Source: an uncultured archaeon (lineage in GTDB: Archaea; Asgardarchaeota; Lokiarchaeia; Sigyniarchaeales; SOKP01). Taken from it: a DNA stretch of 12,256 nt. This document shows positions 1,574 through 11,041 of this stretch, piece after piece. The stretch covers positions 1 to 12,256 of the forward strand of contig CAZGJX010000113.1 in NCBI GenBank assembly GCA_964525635.1, read 5' to 3'. Below the pieces are notes generated by a model. That model did not search any database. It had not been told where the DNA came from and worked only from the letters and a program-made list of their open reading frames with translations. Every line of letters starts with the position of its first letter. Position 1 is the first letter of the stretch. The position numbers and the translations under genes are program-made.

Positions 1574-2122
1574 ATGGCTGAATCTACAATAAAAGAGAAT
1601 GCACATATTTATGTACCAATAAATTATTCAGATTTGAGTAAATCTATACCCGAAGGAGAAGATATAATTTATAGTACCTTAGCTAATGTCCATTTTCTTT
1701 CCGGAAATAGAGAGTATATTTCAAAAAAAACTCATGTATTAATGACTAAAAATGGTTTTGTATACTATTCGTTAAGAAAAAGAAAAGCACCTGAACCTGT
1801 ATATATTAAGTGGTGGGAAATTTATGGTGTAACATTAGGATTTAATCAACCACGTGCAGAAATTTATATATCTAGTAGAACATGGAATGTAAGATTTAAA
1901 CGAAATGAAAATTTTGAATCTAAAGAGATTTTTAAGCAAAGAAAGAAAAATTTTAAAAAATTTATTCTACCAATAATATTAGAATCTAAGAAACAAAGAT
2001 TACAATTTTTACAGGAAAATAGAAATAACAAAAAAGAATATAAGAAGAAATGGGAAAAATGGATTAGTAAGGAAGTAATAAAATTTGAGAAAAAAGTAAA
2101 AAAACATTGTGAAGAGTTCTGA
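1574..2122 (+). CDS. Hypothetical protein, possibly PH-like fold with basic C-terminal helix
   Basis: 182-aa ORF with ATG start. Pattern GEDIIYS...HVLMTKNGFVYY...YIKWWEI resembles prokaryotic PH-domain strand motifs; fold call is inference. Confidence 0.7.
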   Translation: MAESTIKENAHIYVPINYSDLSKSIPEGEDIIYSTLANVHFLSGNREYISKKTHVLMTKNGFVYYSLRKRKAPEPVYIKWWEIYGVTLGFNQPRAEIYISSRTWNVRFKRNENFESKEIFKQRKKNFKKFILPIILESKKQRLQFLQENRNNKKEYKKKWEKWISKEVIKFEKKVKKHCEEF

Positions 2123-2163
2123 TTTCGATATTTGAATAATAAAAAAATATATTGATAAAAAAA

Positions 2164-2748
2164 ATGACCGAATCTAATATCTTTCCAAATAAATGCTTAA
2201 AATGTAAAAAAGTGAGTGAAAAAACAGAAAAAGTTTATTTCAGTAAGACTAGAGGAATTGGGAATAATAAAAATTCAGTATCTATGGGATTTCCTGTTTG
2301 CGAAGAATGCTTACTGGGATTTAATAAATACTTAAAATTAAAAAAGATTGGTAATTTCAGTTTAAAACTTATTTATTTTATTCCTTTTCTATTCATTATG
2401 TATTTAGTTGGAACACACTTCTTCCCATTGATTACAAATTTATTCCCTATTGTTGCATGTATTTTATTTCTATGTTCTTTTCCTTTTATTATTATTTCTT
2501 ATATTAATCCATTTAGAATAACTAAATTTGTGAAACTAAAAATGGATGGAACATATATTATAAAAGATCCAGAATACAGAAATGAAATGATTCAATTATA
2601 CCAAAAATCAATAATTACAGAAGCTCATAATGAAATATATGAACCTGAAGGTATTAATACAGTTTTCTGTCCTAAATGTGGAAAAAAATATAATAAAAAT
2701 ACAGATTTTTGTTTAGTCTGTGGAAAAGATTTAAGATTATTAAAATAA
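2164..2748 (+). CDS. Membrane protein with zinc-ribbon domains
   Basis: N-terminal CLKC...CEEC, two hydrophobic TM segments, C-terminal CPKC...CLVC zinc ribbon. ATG at 2164 preferred over TTG at 2152. Confidence 0.8.
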   Translation: MTESNIFPNKCLKCKKVSEKTEKVYFSKTRGIGNNKNSVSMGFPVCEECLLGFNKYLKLKKIGNFSLKLIYFIPFLFIMYLVGTHFFPLITNLFPIVACILFLCSFPFIIISYINPFRITKFVKLKMDGTYIIKDPEYRNEMIQLYQKSIITEAHNEIYEPEGINTVFCPKCGKKYNKNTDFCLVCGKDLRLLK

Positions 2749-2766
2749 TAAAAAAAAAAAATACCG

Positions 2767-3060
2767 ATGAATCTTTTAAATTTTGATAATGATATATTTT
2801 TAATAGGATTTTTTTTAATAATTATCCTTATTATTGCATCAATTGGGTATGAAATATATAGGGTTCTTAAACATAGATCAGCAGAAAAAAAACAGGGAAA
2901 GTATTTAAAATCAAAAATCAGGTCAAAAGAACAATATAAAGAACTACATGGAGTAAATTACAATAAAAATATTGGGAAGAAATCACTTATTTGTCCAATA
3001 TGTAATATTCTTGCTGATCAAAATACTAATATATGCAGTAAATGTGGAAAAAAGTTATAA
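2767..3060 (+). CDS. Small membrane-anchored zinc-ribbon protein
   Basis: N-terminal TM helix and C-terminal CPIC...CSKC; starts 18 nt after the previous gene. Confidence 0.8.
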   Translation: MNLLNFDNDIFLIGFFLIIILIIASIGYEIYRVLKHRSAEKKQGKYLKSKIRSKEQYKELHGVNYNKNIGKKSLICPICNILADQNTNICSKCGKKL

Positions 3061-3064
3061 ATGG

Positions 3065-3114
3065 TTTTTTATTTTTTTTTATTTTTTTTTATTTTTTTTT
3101 ATTTTTTTTTATTT
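3065..3114 (+). terminator. (AT9)n tandem T-tract, probable archaeal poly-T terminator
   Basis: Four perfect ATTTTTTTTT units (3071-3110) plus partial flanks directly after the operon stop at 3060. Confidence 0.55.
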
Positions 3115-3130
3115 ATCTCTAAATTATAAT

Positions 3131-3205
3131 TCAATTAATCTCCTCAACTTTTAGTAAAGTATAAGTGGGGTTAAGATTCCTCCAAATTGAAAGATAATAA
3201 TACAT
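3131..3205 (-). CDS. Putative 24-aa micro-protein MYYYLSIWRNLNPTYTLLKVEEIN
   Basis: ATG to TGA ORF inside repeat copy 1; homologous to 5333-5413 with synonymous and conservative changes. Confidence 0.45.
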   Translation of the reverse strand: MYYYLSIWRNLNPTYTLLKVEEIN

Positions 3206-3295
3206 CTTAACCAATTGGGGGCTCTATTTTAATTAAGAATTATGACGAAAGTTGACAAAAATCATTATTTTGTACGCACAAAGTACGTACATATT

Positions 3296-3316
3296 GTTCG
3301 ATCCCCTCAATCCCTA
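3296..3316 (+). other. tRNA 3'-end fragment (T-loop + acceptor strand), putative att core 1
   Basis: G-TTCGATC-CCCTC-AATCCCT-A = T-loop, 3' T-stem strand, 3' acceptor strand, discriminator; no 5' tRNA half upstream. Confidence 0.6.
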
Positions 3317-3704
3317 TTTAAAACGTGCAGAGAAAACCTGCATAAACTAAACAATACTAATCTGCTCAATAAAAGGTATCATGGATCTTTAATCATCCGA
3401 GAAGGTTGGTAAAAAAAGAAGAAATCATTTACTATATTCTAGATGATTAATTATAACACCCCGAAAATATTATTAAAAAAATGAATTTAAATTACTTTTT
3501 TCTAAACTAAATAACTATTTTCAATAAACTAAGTATTATTTTTTTATTTTAGAATTATAATATTGTTTTTGTTTTTTATCGACTTTTAACAAAATCTGAA
3601 AATTTTTTACGAAAAAGATAAAATTTATATAAAATAGAATTATCACCAATTCATTAAAATTAATGATTAAAATATACAAAAACGTTAGTTTTAAGTGAAA
3701 AAGA

Positions 3705-5201
3705 ATGAAAAATCAAAAGATAAAAACAACATTGGGTTTATGTCTTTTGGTAACATTTTTAATCTCAATTATTAGTGTTATAGACAATAATCCTTTGGAA
3801 ACAAAAATAGATGTAAAATCAGCTGATCCTTATCGAACAGTAGGTTATATGAGATATTATACATTGGTTGGTGGATCATCAAGCGATTCTGCATATGCTG
3901 TTGTAGTTGATGATTTTGGTTGTACTTATATAGCAGGACATACATATAGTTCTGATTTTCCCACAACTACAGGTGTGATTGATGAGACTCCAAATGGTAA
4001 ATATGATGTATATATATGTAAGATTAATGCTGCTGGAACTGAATTAGAGTTTTCAACCGTTCTTGGTGGATCTGGAAGTGATCTTTTATATGATATTTAT
4101 GTCGATGAATTTGGTTCAATATATCTCTTAGGATTTACTGAAAGTGGTGATTTTCCCACGACTGCAGGTGTAATTGATGAAACTCCTAATGGAGGTTATG
4201 ATATATTCGTAAGTAAAATCAACAGTGATGGAACTGCAATAGAGTATTCAACATTACTTGGTGGATCGGCTAGTGATCAAGGAAAGGCTCTTGCTGTAGA
4301 TGATTCTGGTTGTGTCTATATTACAGGTAGTACTTATAGTATAGATTTTCCTACTACAAAACGTGCTATAGACAGGTCTCATAATGGTCAGGCTGATGTA
4401 TTTGTGAGTAAGATTAATGCAGATGGAAGTAGTCTACTATATTCAACATACCTTGGAGGTATAAAAATGGAATGTGGTCAAGATATTGTCGTTGATGATG
4501 AAGGGTGTGCTATTATTACAGGTTATACATATAGTTCCAATTTCCCAACAACATCAGGTGTAATTGACGAGACTCATGGTGGTGGAAATGATGTATTTGT
4601 TTGTAAAATTAGCGATAATGCAAGGAATCTACTATATTCAACCTTCCTTGGTGGTTCAGGAAATGATTGTGGAAATTCTATTGTTCTTTCTAATGATAAT
4701 TGTATAATTATTGCAGGATATGCACAGAGCACTACTTTTCCCACAACTACAGGTGTGATTGATGAAACTCATAATGGGTATTATGATGCTTTTATCACTA
4801 AGATTAATAGTGATGGAACTGGGATAATATTTTCAACCTTCCTTGGTGGTTCTGATTATGATTCTGTAAATGATATTATATTGGATAGTGCTGGTAATAT
4901 TTATATAACAGGATCAAGTAGAAGTCTAAATTTTCCTATGAGCTCCATGTGTATTGATCCTTTTAATACTGGGGCTTTTGACGTGATCTGGTGTAAAGTT
5001 AATAGCGATGCCACTGAGTTAATATATTCCACATTTGCAGGTGGTCAAAATTCTGAATATGGAATGGGAATCGCTGTCGATAGTGTTGGTGATGTCTATG
5101 TTGCAGGATATTCTTATAGTGACTGGAAATATTACACCATAGGGCCATGTGGAGCTACAGATTCAGATGCACTTATTATTAAATATGTATCAATTCCATA
5201 A
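3705..5201 (+). CDS. Secreted SBBP-repeat (seven-bladed beta-propeller) protein
   Basis: N-terminal signal/TM segment; repeats of YSTxLGGSxxD...VDxxGxxYITGxTxSxDFPTT...DxFVxKI with exact 65-aa (195-bp) period. Confidence 0.92.
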   Translation: MKNQKIKTTLGLCLLVTFLISIISVIDNNPLETKIDVKSADPYRTVGYMRYYTLVGGSSSDSAYAVVVDDFGCTYIAGHTYSSDFPTTTGVIDETPNGKYDVYICKINAAGTELEFSTVLGGSGSDLLYDIYVDEFGSIYLLGFTESGDFPTTAGVIDETPNGGYDIFVSKINSDGTAIEYSTLLGGSASDQGKALAVDDSGCVYITGSTYSIDFPTTKRAIDRSHNGQADVFVSKINADGSSLLYSTYLGGIKMECGQDIVVDDEGCAIITGYTYSSNFPTTSGVIDETHGGGNDVFVCKISDNARNLLYSTFLGGSGNDCGNSIVLSNDNCIIIAGYAQSTTFPTTTGVIDETHNGYYDAFITKINSDGTGIIFSTFLGGSDYDSVNDIILDSAGNIYITGSSRSLNFPMSSMCIDPFNTGAFDVIWCKVNSDATELIYSTFAGGQNSEYGMGIAVDSVGDVYVAGYSYSDWKYYTIGPCGATDSDALIIKYVSIP

Positions 5202-5232
5202 AGATACTTAAAAAATCTAATTAAAATTACCG

Positions 5233-5264
5233 AACCAAACCAGAAGTTGGTTTTTTTTTTTTTT
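5233..5264 (+). terminator. Putative terminator of SBBP gene
   Basis: Short stem aaccaa/ttggtt followed by a T14 run (5251-5264), about 30 nt after the stop codon. Confidence 0.55.
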
Positions 5265-5332
5265 CTTTATAAACATAGATAATTATGATTTGAAAATTGA
5301 TTTATTTTATTATTGTTAATATATAAATATAT

Positions 5333-5413
5333 TCAATTAATCTCCTCAATTCTAAGTAAGGTATAAATGGGTATTAAATCCTTCAAGATAGGAAATTGGA
5401 TGAATAAATTCAT
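5333..5413 (-). CDS. Putative 26-aa micro-protein MNLFIQFPILKDLIPIYTLLRIEEIN
   Basis: ATG to TGA ORF inside repeat copy 2; homologous to 3131-3205. Confidence 0.45.
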   Translation of the reverse strand: MNLFIQFPILKDLIPIYTLLRIEEIN

Positions 5414-5498
5414 ATAATAGAAAATATCATTTATTTAAGAATTGTGACGAAAGTTGACAAAAATAACGTGATTTGTAATGACATTGTGATGACAAATT

Positions 5499-5519
5499 GT
5501 TCAATTTCCTCAGTCCCCA
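5499..5519 (+). other. tRNA 3'-end fragment, putative att core 2
   Basis: G-TTCAATT-TCCTC-AGTCCCC-A. Confidence 0.65.
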
Positions 5520-5676
5520 TATTTTTTACACTTAGAACGCTTCTACATATTTATTATTTGCTTAATATAGATAAATAAAATAAAATCTTAGAAATCAAAA
5601 ATACAATTAAATTTTATGATATTAAAATTAAAATATTAATTGATAGGAAAAAAAAATAAATGAATAAACTATAAGT

Positions 5677-6525
5677 TTAGAGATTTCTAATCTCTTCTAT
5701 TATCTCTTTAGCTTCTTCTATTAATTTTTTCATAATCTCTTTAACTTCTGATAAAATTTCTTCTGATCCTTCCTTAATTATATTTAAGTTATAACCAGAC
5801 ATAATTCCTTGGAAAATATTCCCTAAATTATGAGAATATTTATCTTTTAAAAACTTCTTTTGATCAGATGATATATTATATTCTAAGTGAATCATAAAAA
5901 CTATAAGGATAAGGGTTGTTAAGATAATAGGGACATAAGAGAGAATAATTGCATTAATATTTTCAGTTTGGTATAATATATATGAATCACTACCTAATGA
6001 AAAAAAAATTGATAAAGGTATATAATATAAAATCGAAAAACAAGATAAATAGTACCATCTGATACTTTTACCTACTTTTTTCTTGAACTTGCGAAATTTC
6101 ATGATTGGTAAAAGTAAAAATATAAAATAAAATGAAAAAGTATAGATCCTACTTAAATAATATACAAAATTTAAACCTACTATAATAAAAAGAACTATAG
6201 AAATCAATATTGATAATATTAAAAAAAAGAAAATTTTAAAATGATATATTTTAAGATAATAAGAAGTTAATCCTACAAGTATAAGGATCAATGCAATTGG
6301 TCCAAGAATATAATTCAAAAATAGAAGAATTATTCCTATAGACGAGTTGTGTTCGCTCTCGTTAAGAATAATAAAAATTAAAGAAATAGCCCAAAGGCCC
6401 CATCCAATAAAAAAATAGATATACGTTTTAGATTTAGTGTCGTAATAGAAATCAGTAGATACGACAACTCCAACTAATCTTATGATAATCAAAACAATAA
6501 TACTGAAAAAAATAAGTTCATTCAA
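5677..6525 (-). CDS. 7TM membrane sensor-like protein with C-terminal HisKA-like H-box, no HATPase domain
   Basis: Seven hydrophobic segments, then DKYSHNLGNIFQGI (HxxxN H-box) and a helical tail ending IIEEIRNL; TTG start. Confidence 0.75.
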   Translation of the reverse strand: MNELIFFSIIVLIIIRLVGVVVSTDFYYDTKSKTYIYFFIGWGLWAISLIFIILNESEHNSSIGIILLFLNYILGPIALILILVGLTSYYLKIYHFKIFFFLILSILISIVLFIIVGLNFVYYLSRIYTFSFYFIFLLLPIMKFRKFKKKVGKSIRWYYLSCFSILYYIPLSIFFSLGSDSYILYQTENINAIILSYVPIILTTLILIVFMIHLEYNISSDQKKFLKDKYSHNLGNIFQGIMSGYNLNIIKEGSEEILSEVKEIMKKLIEEAKEIIEEIRNL

Positions 6526-6817
6526 TTATATTTTTGTCCTTAAGGTTTTTAACTACTTTGATCAACAATATATATGTCTAGTTTTTCTTATATAAATTTG
6601 GGATTTAAAAAATAAAAAAAAAATAGAAATTAATTCAAATAATTCAATTATATAAATCAATTTGTTAGAAACTGGATTAGCCTTAAATGATGATTGATGA
6701 AAACAGTTTCGAAAATTAGTTAAATAAATACTTCTGATTATTCATACTTTATTACTCCAATTTTTTACCCAGAGGTGAAAAACCGAGAGGAATATATATA
6801 TAATGTATATACAGAAT

Positions 6818-6838
6818 TTTTAATTCCCTCAGTCCCCA
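6818..6838 (+). other. tRNA 3'-end fragment, putative att core 3
   Basis: T-TTTAATT-CCCTC-AGTCCCC-A; shares CCTCAGTCCCCATAT with core 2. Confidence 0.65.
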
Positions 6839-7022
6839 TATATTTAATAAAATCAAGCTTGTTTTTTTCAAAATTAACTTAAAGAAATAGAGATCATAGT
6901 TTGTCTCTTTTCTTTTAATTTAATTGTTTTGATATTATTCCTGACAATTAAATTCGCGTATAACTAAAATATATTTTCAGAGATCAAAGAGAAATGTAAT
7001 TTAAAAAAAAAGAAAAATAAAT

Positions 7023-9740: not shown

Positions 9741-9940
9741 ATGACTTTTAAAAAAAAAATTATTTAAAGATTTTGATTTTAATAGAGATCAATGATGTCT
9801 TATAGCTAAAAGGTATATAACACGATTGCTTGATAAAATGAGATCTATAATATATGACAATTTCTATAATGTCATTAAAATATTTAATAATTTCGAGATT
9901 AAAAATTTAAATTATAAATATATTATTTCTATTGAATAAT

Positions 9941-10126
9941 ATGCAAACCATAAAAGAAAAAGTAATTGAATCAATTAAAAAACTTCCTGATGATGTTAAT
10001 TACGATGATATCATGGAGTCAATTTATGTTCAACAAATGATTACAAAGGGTATTGAGCAGTTGGATAATGGGGAATCCCTCTCCCACGAAGAGGTAAAAG
10101 AAAGGTTTAAGAAATGGGTGAAATAA
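9941..10126 (+). CDS. Type II antitoxin, partner of the RelE/ParE toxin
   Basis: 61-aa protein (KLPDDVNYDDIM...GIEQLDNGESLSHEEVK) typical of ParE-associated antitoxins; overlaps the toxin start by 13 nt. ATG at 9941 preferred over TTG at 9932. Confidence 0.8.
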   Translation: MQTIKEKVIESIKKLPDDVNYDDIMESIYVQQMITKGIEQLDNGESLSHEEVKERFKKWVK

Positions 10127-10398
10127 GATGGTCCCTTATAGCAAGTGATGATTATGATTCAATAATTAAGTATTATGAGAAAACCGCACCAAAATTTGCT
10201 CAAAACCTTGCTAAGAAAATTATGTATATCATTGATAACTTAATTCAATTTCCTAAAATGGGCAGGATGGTACCAGAATTAGAAAATGAGGAAATAAGGG
10301 AAATAATTTATAGAAATTTTCGAATAATTTATCGTCTAAAGGAAAATCTATTAGAGATTACTAGAATAATTCATGGTAGTAGTATCTTAAGAATTTAA
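10114..10398 (+). CDS. Type II toxin, RelE/ParE family
   Basis: IRWSLIA..D...I..YY; FPKMGRMVPE...IREIIYRNFRIIYR...ITRIIHGS; classic RelE/ParE signature. Confidence 0.9.
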   Translation: MGEIRWSLIASDDYDSIIKYYEKTAPKFAQNLAKKIMYIIDNLIQFPKMGRMVPELENEEIREIIYRNFRIIYRLKENLLEITRIIHGSSILRI

Positions 10399-11041
10399 TT
10401 TTTTAGTATTATAATTTATGATCCATATTAAGTTTTAAATATTTAATTTTCTTCCATCCCATTATCAAACGATTTTCTACTACATCATAATATTATTTTA
10501 TTCTTGGTATTTTATTTTATATTCTAAATGAAGTCTTAATGAATCACATTTAAAAAAGTCATTAAAATCTTGAGTATTATCTTAATATAAAAAAAGATTT
10601 TTCATGGAAAAGTTGGATAATTTAATGGAAAATAGAATCAAAACCTCTATTTAATTTTCTTTTGATCTCCATGTGAATAATAAAATAATCTACCAGCCTT
10701 TCCTGATAATGTTCTAGCTTTTGTGTATAAACTTCTTTGTCTGCTAAGTTTTTTTTTTAGCAATTCTTTTATTTCATCATTCCATTTTCCATTTTTTAAC
10801 AATCATCTTTTGATTTTCACAATCTCCTCAGTTATATATAATAAAAGTATATCTATTTATTTTTAAATGAAAAATAAGTAAAGTAACTTTTGAAATATTT
10901 ATTAATATTGATAATTATCTACTATTAGTCCTTTTTAATGATCTAATCCTTCAATATAGAGTTTCACAATACAACAACACCTATTTATATAATAGTTAGT
11001 TTTTATTTTTTTGTACCTTTTTTAAATTATTCTATATTTTT

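Follow-up and report, generated by a model that had tools for sequence, protein, structure and literature searches.

At the locus described here, three copies of the 3′ end of a tRNA-Trp gene (the cores) lie on the same strand of an archaeal contig and separate small modules of accessory genes from one another. The window, by which we mean the whole stretch of DNA that was analyzed, is the entire contig C113, 12,256 nt long, of a 4.45-Mb source assembly with 26.8% GC (G000). We compared it with three sister genomes, G001 to G003; the four represent one Lokiarchaeia genus, three of them are 98-100% complete, and the G003 assembly is fragmented. The cores are these.

3296-3316, + strand: core 1, a tRNA-Trp 3′ fragment identical to the tRNA at 17 of 21 positions
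5499-5519, + strand: core 2, a tRNA-Trp 3′ fragment identical to the tRNA at 20 of 21 positions
6818-6838, + strand: core 3, a tRNA-Trp 3′ fragment identical to the tRNA at 19 of 21 positions

The first-pass annotation of this DNA had placed three same-strand 21-mers here and had read them as the end of a tRNA that lacks its 5′ half. Both statements hold: the positions are exact, all copies are on the + strand, and each core consists of the T-loop, the 3′ strand of the T-stem, the 3′ strand of the acceptor stem and the discriminator, with no tRNA 5′ half upstream of any core. In its 17-nt form the core is ATTCCCTCAGTCCCCAT. The 12-mer CCTCARTCCCYA, common to the cores, occurs three times in the window compared with 0.00 expected from 200 dinucleotide shuffles, implying that chance predicts none; a reversed-pattern control for the motif gave 0-1 matches per genome in 41 related genomes. 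Neither ARAGORN nor Rfam, the latter even at E = 1, detects a tRNA in the window, and the cores are therefore fragments. Nor is the motif dispersed through the genome. A fuzzy search of all 4.45 Mb of G000 found it at one other place, C26:40626-40646, so that it is confined to the cores in the window and the 3′ end of tRNA-Trp. Further cores are present in G001-G003.

This other place belongs to an intact tRNA-Trp(CCA) gene at G000:C26:40543-40647. The first-pass annotation had predicted such a gene, down to its acceptor strand and its terminal sequence; indeed, the gene begins with GGGGACT and ends with GAGGGTTCAATTCCCTCAGTCCCCA, both as forecast. It scores 56 bits with the Rfam tRNA model, and its anticodon loop, CUCCAGA, is that of Trp(CCA). 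The variable region holds a 31-nt insert that forms a 9-bp hairpin; it represents a non-canonical intron or else an additional arm. In both the anticodon stem and the insert hairpin, G000 and G001 show compensatory changes relative to each other, which preserve the hairpin in G001. From the tRNA gene to the end of C26 there are 476 nt, and the genes upstream of it on C26 are of housekeeping type only. Both the end of C26 and the start of C113 run into sequence related to insertion sequences (ISs), and on this evidence adjacency of the two contigs in G000 is plausible.

The cargo of the modules that the cores delimit is distributed as follows.

1574-3060, + strand: cargo of the left module, three small open reading frames (ORFs) of 182, 198 and 97 aa, of which the second and the third end in zinc-ribbon motifs
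3527-5201, + strand: cargo of module 2, the SBBP gene (3705-5201) with a conserved region upstream of it (3527-3704)
5677-6525, − strand: cargo of module 3, a gene for a 282-aa seven-transmembrane (7TM) protein with seven hydrophobic segments

Modules of 2203 bp (SBBP) and 1319 bp (7TM) with a single gene each had been proposed, and the ORF map and the Pfam matches agree with this; the left end of the left module is outside the window. We scanned 10 ORFs of the window, nine complete ones of at least 94 aa and one at the contig end, for domains in Pfam and NCBIfam. As the first-pass annotation had also said, no module encodes a recombinase: none was found in the scanned ORFs, save for an unrelated ISH3-type transposase at 146-1063. 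The SBBP gene encodes a secreted or anchored beta-propeller of 498 aa (Pfam SBBP, E = 9e-31) and has a GC content of 34%, compared with 26% for the contig. Its upstream region is 390 nt long, and within it the final 178 nt show 88% conservation with G001. The 7TM protein has no match in Pfam or NCBIfam; its C-terminal tail resembles the H-box of histidine kinases followed by a coiled coil. Also upstream of the SBBP gene, an AT-rich stretch (3464-3540) has short matches of 75-100% in dozens of family genomes and on several G000 contigs; this could be a promoter or leader motif of wide occurrence, or else a small repeat in dispersed copies.

The cores are flanked by arms that have the appearance of attachment (att) site arms.

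3129-3295, + strand: arm 1, a P-type att arm, with 5′ motif (3134-3174), box GAATTATGACGAAAGTTGACAAAAAT (3237-3262) and doublet GTACGCACAAA/GTACGTACA (3272-3291)
3317-3526, + strand: P′-type arm, homologous to the DNA 3′ of the intact tRNA-Trp on C26, with hairpin GTGCAGAGAAAACCTGCA (3325-3342)
5331-5498, + strand: arm 2, P-type, with 5′ motif (5336-5377), box (5439-5464) and doublet GTAATGACATT/GTGATGACA (5475-5494)
5520-5545, + strand: short P′-like remnant, with hairpin TTAGAACGCTTCTA (5532-5545)
6684-6817, + strand: arm 3, of a different arm family, with box TTTTTTACCCAGAGGTGAAAAA (6761-6782) and AT-rich repeats (6792-6812)

Arms 1 and 2, of about 190 nt, are 69% alike and have no other copy in G000; homologous arms are present in G001-G003. 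Alignment with the copies of the three sister genomes gives one layout for the P arms: the 5′ motif ATTAATCTCCTCAATTCTAAGTAAGGTATAAATGGG, the box GAATTRTGACGAAAGTTGWCAAAAAT (in short form TGACGAAAGTTG), the repeat doublet, TTG and the core. The doublet consists of two 9-nt repeats with a period of 11 nt, and its sequence varies between arms. The box and the 5′ motif are retained across arms that are otherwise only about 69% alike. When we searched 61 genomes of the family with a model of the part from box to core (R1), arms were found in all four genomes of the genus, and the other 57 genomes gave two marginal matches.

On the other side of the core, the roughly 235 nt that start at core 1 are 68% identical over 239 aligned nt to C26:40626-40860, which is the tRNA end and the DNA behind it, and the P′-type arm is 73% identical to that of G001. 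The hairpin motif of the remnant behind core 2 is also found 3′ of the decayed core of arm 3 in G001. In G002 and G003, the DNA 3′ of the tRNA carries fresh-looking repeats of GTRCGTACAAT together with the box. The order of the motifs is mirrored across the core, and the orientation of each motif is unchanged. Because P′-type DNA, or a remnant of it, follows each core, the junctions at cores 1 and 2 look like attP, with the arrangement P arm, core, P′ arm. The cores are thus same-strand direct repeats of a tRNA 3′ end at the boundaries of putative elements, and module 2 has kept att arms on both sides of a cargo without a recombinase domain.

The sister genomes provide the context that the contig lacks at its left end. 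One contig of G001, syntenic with C26 upstream of the tRNA, carries first the tRNA and then a 330-nt stretch that includes a tiny zinc-ribbon ORF; these are followed by arm 1 and core 1, the SBBP gene and arm 2, and behind arm 2 by an acyltransferase_3 gene, a third arm, whose core has decayed, and more accessory genes. An intact target tRNA therefore stands at the head of the array, about 0.5 kb before the SBBP module, as a physical linkage seen in G001 and deduced for G000. The earlier suggestion of a mobile SBBP module behind this tRNA is supported accordingly by its position in G001 and by a signature of horizontal transfer in identity, distribution and GC content. Between G000 and G001 the SBBP proteins are 92% identical, and the genes are 78% identical at 208 four-fold sites, whereas six core genes beside the tRNA have protein identities of 55-71% and four-fold identities of 40-65%. 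Because of this difference at four-fold sites, we conclude that the SBBP module is much younger than the species split. The gene was found in only 2 of 25 family genomes, G000 included. Its next-best relatives reach at most 47% and are mostly bacterial, or at most 56% in other families of the order; among 5.8 billion proteins, that of G001 is the only close one, and no exact record of another copy of the SBBP cassette was found.

The block that the window has in common with G001 extends from 3117 to 5465 at 86.6% identity, with unrelated flanks. Identity of the arms between these genomes is 70-77%, about neutral when compared with the 78% at four-fold sites. In G001, arm 1 and its core and the cores of arms 2 and 3 are decaying, and the box of arm 2 is intact. 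The left part of arm 2 of G000 matches arm 2 of G001 (z = 23), and its right part and flank match arm 3 of G001 (z = 4.5), which suggests that recombination from arm to arm may have removed or added the acyltransferase unit. G001 and G003 are 96% identical upstream of and through the tRNA, and the similarity ends 1 nt past its 3′ end; in G003, two arm-core junctions enclose a unit with a single gene (PG_binding_1). The first-pass annotation had expected breakpoints in gene content to fall at the cores. This is so at the tRNA 3′ end, where G001 and G003 part, but the SBBP block ends at 3117 and 5465 instead.

We then have to ask which enzyme could have acted on these sites. Upstream of tRNA-Trp on C26, no recombinase is encoded by the seven ORFs of at least 170 aa that were scanned over about 10 kb. 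Six-frame searches of the four genomes with PF00589 found one XerA-like gene in each, with a SAM_1 and a catalytic domain, beside a thioredoxin reductase gene; in G000 it is on C14 and is the sole full-length match. Two further matches to tyrosine recombinases, a fragment at a contig end of G000 (C211) and a weak 434-aa match in G002 (C112), are linked neither to a tRNA nor to an arm. Both were rejected as the integrase: relatives of the former occur patchily in three other genera and in no case near a tRNA, and the latter is unique to G002. No integrase remnants were seen in the six-frame searches. Small serine recombinases number 3-6 per genome. The proteins of 676 and 969 aa encoded behind the tRNA of G002 had no informative match.

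A search for an autonomous element gave a similar picture. In viral contigs, the box pattern had two chance matches inside coding regions only, and the pattern of repeat plus core had no match; in genome contigs, the box pattern matched the three sister genomes and, by chance, some bacteria. The sequence of the doublet varies between arms, which argues for several donor elements, each with its own integrase, rather than for one enzyme that serves all cassettes.

The same layout recurs at other tRNA genes. In G000, tRNA-Cys (C88:8290-8518) is followed by a doublet, GTATATAC twice, and by the palindromic T/A box TTTTTTTACCTTTAGGTAAAAAA; a 17-nt tail of tRNA-Cys on another contig (C103:7780-7862) is preceded by the elements of C88 in reverse order. 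From these sequences, tRNA-Cys looks to be the anchor of a second such site, built to the same grammar. Tails of a tRNA on C174 (ATTCCCGTCAGGTCCAT, with 1-2 changes) lie at C9:228, C36:20288, C82:79 and C120:2456. The copies on C9 and C36 are preceded by arms that are homologous to each other (66% over 150 nt), and the C9 arm has a doublet of its own, GATATCAC twice. Different tRNAs therefore have in common a T/A-rich palindromic box, a repeat doublet and a tRNA tail, each with repeats of its own, and most tRNAs whose flanks were inspected have plain T-rich DNA downstream. No recombinase was found among the genes scanned beside tRNA-Cys on C88 or beside the tRNA fragments on C103, C9 and C36.

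Two side observations concern tRNA genes elsewhere. In G040, which belongs to another family of the order, the stretch fetched from contig C362 (1640-1800) contains a perfect 29-nt repeat, GGTCAAGGGTTCAATTCCCTTAGTCCCCA, of the tRNA-Trp 3′ end, 127 nt downstream. We read the repeat as an apparent gene-less mini-scar, which shows tRNA-Trp to be a putative insertion site there too. In G000, 22 tRNA genes lie in two tight clusters at C54:19098-26273; this array may be of viral or foreign origin and binned with G000.

The remaining features of the window are not part of the modules. A complete ISH3-type IS lies at about 56-1388, with inverted ends of about 24-38 nt at about 58-94 and 1349-1387. Its transposase ORF (146-1063, 305 aa) matches NCBIfam ISH3 at E = 8e-18, under the curated cut-off, and copies of the IS end sequence are found at many contig ends of G003. 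A 10-nt unit, T9A, is repeated five times in tandem at 3057-3117, after the stop of the 97-aa ORF, and abuts arm 1 upstream. Far to the right, a gene for a ParE-type toxin (10114-10398), preceded by a small ORF, lies in a region (9897-10418) whose DNA is 90% identical to G002:C58. The pair looks recently exchanged because this identity is far above the roughly 73% of core genes between G000 and G001.

On balance, we consider it probable that the locus arose by tandem accretion, at tRNA-Trp, of tiny integrative elements without an integrase that resemble cis-mobilizable elements (CIMEs). In that case, the tRNA-Trp(CCA) gene would anchor a variable island in the genome of a Lokiarchaeia-type Asgard archaeon, the window would be the island's distal part, and the island would have grown by repeated site-specific insertion of such small elements. 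Crossover would take place in or just past the T-loop, leaving the displaced tRNA tail of 17-21 nt at the far end of the element, and the junctions at cores 1 and 2 would each be an attP-like joint between two tandem elements of one family. The units, made up of att arms and one accessory gene and devoid of a recombinase, would be CIME-like or satellite elements, whose integrase either has disappeared or comes from an autonomous relative that these assemblies do not contain. Insertion of the ISH3-type IS, recombination between arms and decay of cores would have reshaped the island later. We infer that a tyrosine-type integrase acts through the repeat doublets and the box; the order of insertion and mobilization in trans are likewise deduced from the arrangement.

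Several observations sit uneasily with this model. C26 and C113 are separate contigs, and their linkage in G000 is taken from G001. The limits of the block common to G000 and G001 are not the cores. The evidence for module 3 consists of its flanking cores, and the relative of the 7TM gene in G001 (73% nucleotide identity) sits on another contig, where the 9 kb around it (about 4 kb on each side) are free of core-like motifs. Arm 3 is 71% identical over 139 nt, in inverted orientation, to DNA on C88 that lies immediately 3′ of tRNA-Cys, and simple insertion does not predict an inverted arm of tRNA-Cys type at this place. Random decay, moreover, does not predict repeated reduction to one gene with both arms, and the six-frame PF00589 searches revealed no cognate integrase in the four genomes of the genus.

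A rival explanation is that the locus is a living system of cassette exchange at tRNA-Trp, functionally like an integron, in which the units are born small and are still carried into and out of the site by a recombinase encoded elsewhere. Candidates for this enzyme would be the XerA-like protein of the host, one of the small serine recombinases or something not recognized as a recombinase. Such a system would be consistent with one-gene, two-arm units in four genomes with cargo as varied as SBBP, acyltransferase_3, PG_binding_1, helix-turn-helix and zinc-ribbon proteins, with an SBBP unit that moved or was exchanged after the species split, with the retention of box and 5′ motif in otherwise diverged arms and with the absence of visible integrase remnants. 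We nevertheless regard it as unlikely. Neither an excision product nor a circle nor a reshuffled order of modules was observed, the differences between doublets speak against a single enzyme, the arms and cores of G001 are in decay as described above, and the arms of G000 and G001 have diverged at an about neutral rate. Another proposal dispenses with site-specific recombination: DNA near the tRNA was duplicated locally, homologous recombination between arms followed, and the arms serve as portable homology for swaps of accessory genes between related strains. In its favor, arm 2 of G000 looks like a hybrid of two G001 arms, with a switch close to the box by which the acyltransferase gene is removed or added, and the common block ends within an arm and not at a core. 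The arms, however, have no similarity to the 5′ part of the tRNA or to the DNA upstream of it, near-identical genomes cease to be homologous exactly at the 3′ end of the tRNA, and the layout of tail plus arm recurs at other tRNAs with unrelated arm sequences. A tRNA tail that starts in the T-loop is a classical mark of integrase crossover, and the tails here begin in just this way. We judge duplication and homologous recombination alone to be an improbable origin.

The mirrored order of box and doublet on the two sides of the core, and the inverted copy of a tRNA-Cys-side arm in arm 3, might also suggest transposons with terminal inverted repeats, casposon-like or other, with the tRNA tail as a long target-site duplication. 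Casposons target the 3′ ends of tRNA genes, and their target-site duplications measure 14-15 nt. The repeat here is longer, at 17-21 nt; the orientation of the motifs is the same on both sides of the core; and, beyond short self-palindromic motifs, the P arms of the Trp family are not inverted copies of the P′ arms, a comparison of the two as long inverted copies being not significant. The only Cas1 in G000 adjoins Cas4 on C197 and is hence of CRISPR type, and Cas1 was not found in G002 or G003. A casposon, which consists of a Cas1 casposase and a family B polymerase between terminal inverted repeats, was rejected on the grounds of this Cas1 and of the lack of long inverted repeats between the Trp-type arms, and we think a transposon of any such kind very improbable. 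Least credible, and extremely improbable, is that the units of arm plus core are RNA genes, either 3′ halves of split tRNAs or tRNA-like RNAs, that the splicing machinery joins or processes. A TATA-like element upstream of the arm box would suit transcription of this kind, but Rfam has no match in the window even at the permissive threshold given above, the arms lack a 5′ T-stem or acceptor strand, and the cores of G001 decay by C-to-T changes. With up to 3-4 mismatches allowed, the G000 genome contains neither the reverse complement of either doublet (arms 1 and 2) nor a second tRNA-Trp 5′ part. A split tRNA, in which the trailer of a separate 5′ part would pair with the leader of the 3′ part, was accordingly rejected: it has no complementary doublet partner and no extra 5′ part in the genome, and no Rfam match in the window.

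That insertions leave tandem scars at tRNA genes is textbook knowledge. Less usual are units stripped to one gene and complete att arms, and a varied cargo across a Lokiarchaeia genus, with no matching integrase found in four genomes. Should the units have remained mobile, the exchange of surface and sensor genes among Asgard archaea can be seen in them, and they point to an unrecognized recombinase. Even as fossils, they would identify tRNA-Trp as a hot spot of gene flow in a lineage with hardly any description of its mobile elements. The combination of tRNA tail, repeat doublet and box also provides a sequence grammar for locating such sites. It is doubtful that the sites belong to a general system, without an integrase of its own, by which Asgard archaea swap accessory genes as one-gene cassettes. 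Each cassette would carry a tRNA tail and a modular arm of box and cassette-specific repeat doublet, and an unrecognized recombinase encoded elsewhere would insert and excise the cassettes at tRNA genes. If this were true, tRNA genes would be the basis of a system that corresponds in function to integrons.

How does the locus compare with known systems? The first-pass annotation had called it integron-like, and there is a likeness in the mostly single-gene, recombinase-free units, the short recombination sites and the single chromosomal locus. That label is nevertheless not supported, because three of four integron features fail. There is no adjacent integrase of the IntI type, since PF00589 has no match in the window or in the scanned ORFs upstream on C26; the sites are tRNA tails with upstream arms of about 190 nt and downstream arms, not folded attC hairpins; and the cassettes stand in both orientations, the 7TM gene being on the minus strand, and have upstream regions of their own. 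Because these features fail, we file the locus as a miniature, integrase-less tandem accretion at a tRNA gene.

Insertion targeted to tRNA genes is on record for Asgard archaea (PMC8813620). In Prochlorococcus, the islands flanked by tRNAs, which contain tycheposons, have partial tRNAs scattered among accessory genes (10.1101/2020.12.28.424599), and the resemblance lies in repeated insertion at one tRNA that pushes older elements outward. Tycheposons, however, carry tyrosine recombinases and replication genes, and their remnants include integrase fragments, none of which was seen here. CIMEs have lost the genes for integration and transfer and kept attL and attR, and their accretion is known from ICESt1 and ICESt3 in Streptococcus thermophilus (PMC5704250). 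The units of the present locus share with them the tandem arrangement at the 3′ end of a target gene and the retained att arms. CIMEs are, however, defined against a known related integrative and conjugative element whose integrase moves them, whereas no autonomous partner is known here; their mobilization has been shown experimentally, whereas that of the units described here is putative.

The closest published case is that of the ssrA islands of Dehalococcoides. These stand in tandem, bounded by direct repeats of about 20 bp of the 3′ end of the gene, with insertion into the T-loop's middle and a conserved motif beside each repeat; they are many kilobases long, and 16 carry a serine-recombinase module, dsiB, beside attL (PMC3146451). 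Some have no integration module, and the authors propose that these are cis-mobilizable (PMC3146451). Our locus differs from them in its host, an Asgard archaeon, in its target, tRNA-Trp, in one-gene units of 0.5-2.2 kb and in having no recombinase in any unit in four genomes. What the two have in common is the overall plan, a row of islands behind one small-RNA gene.

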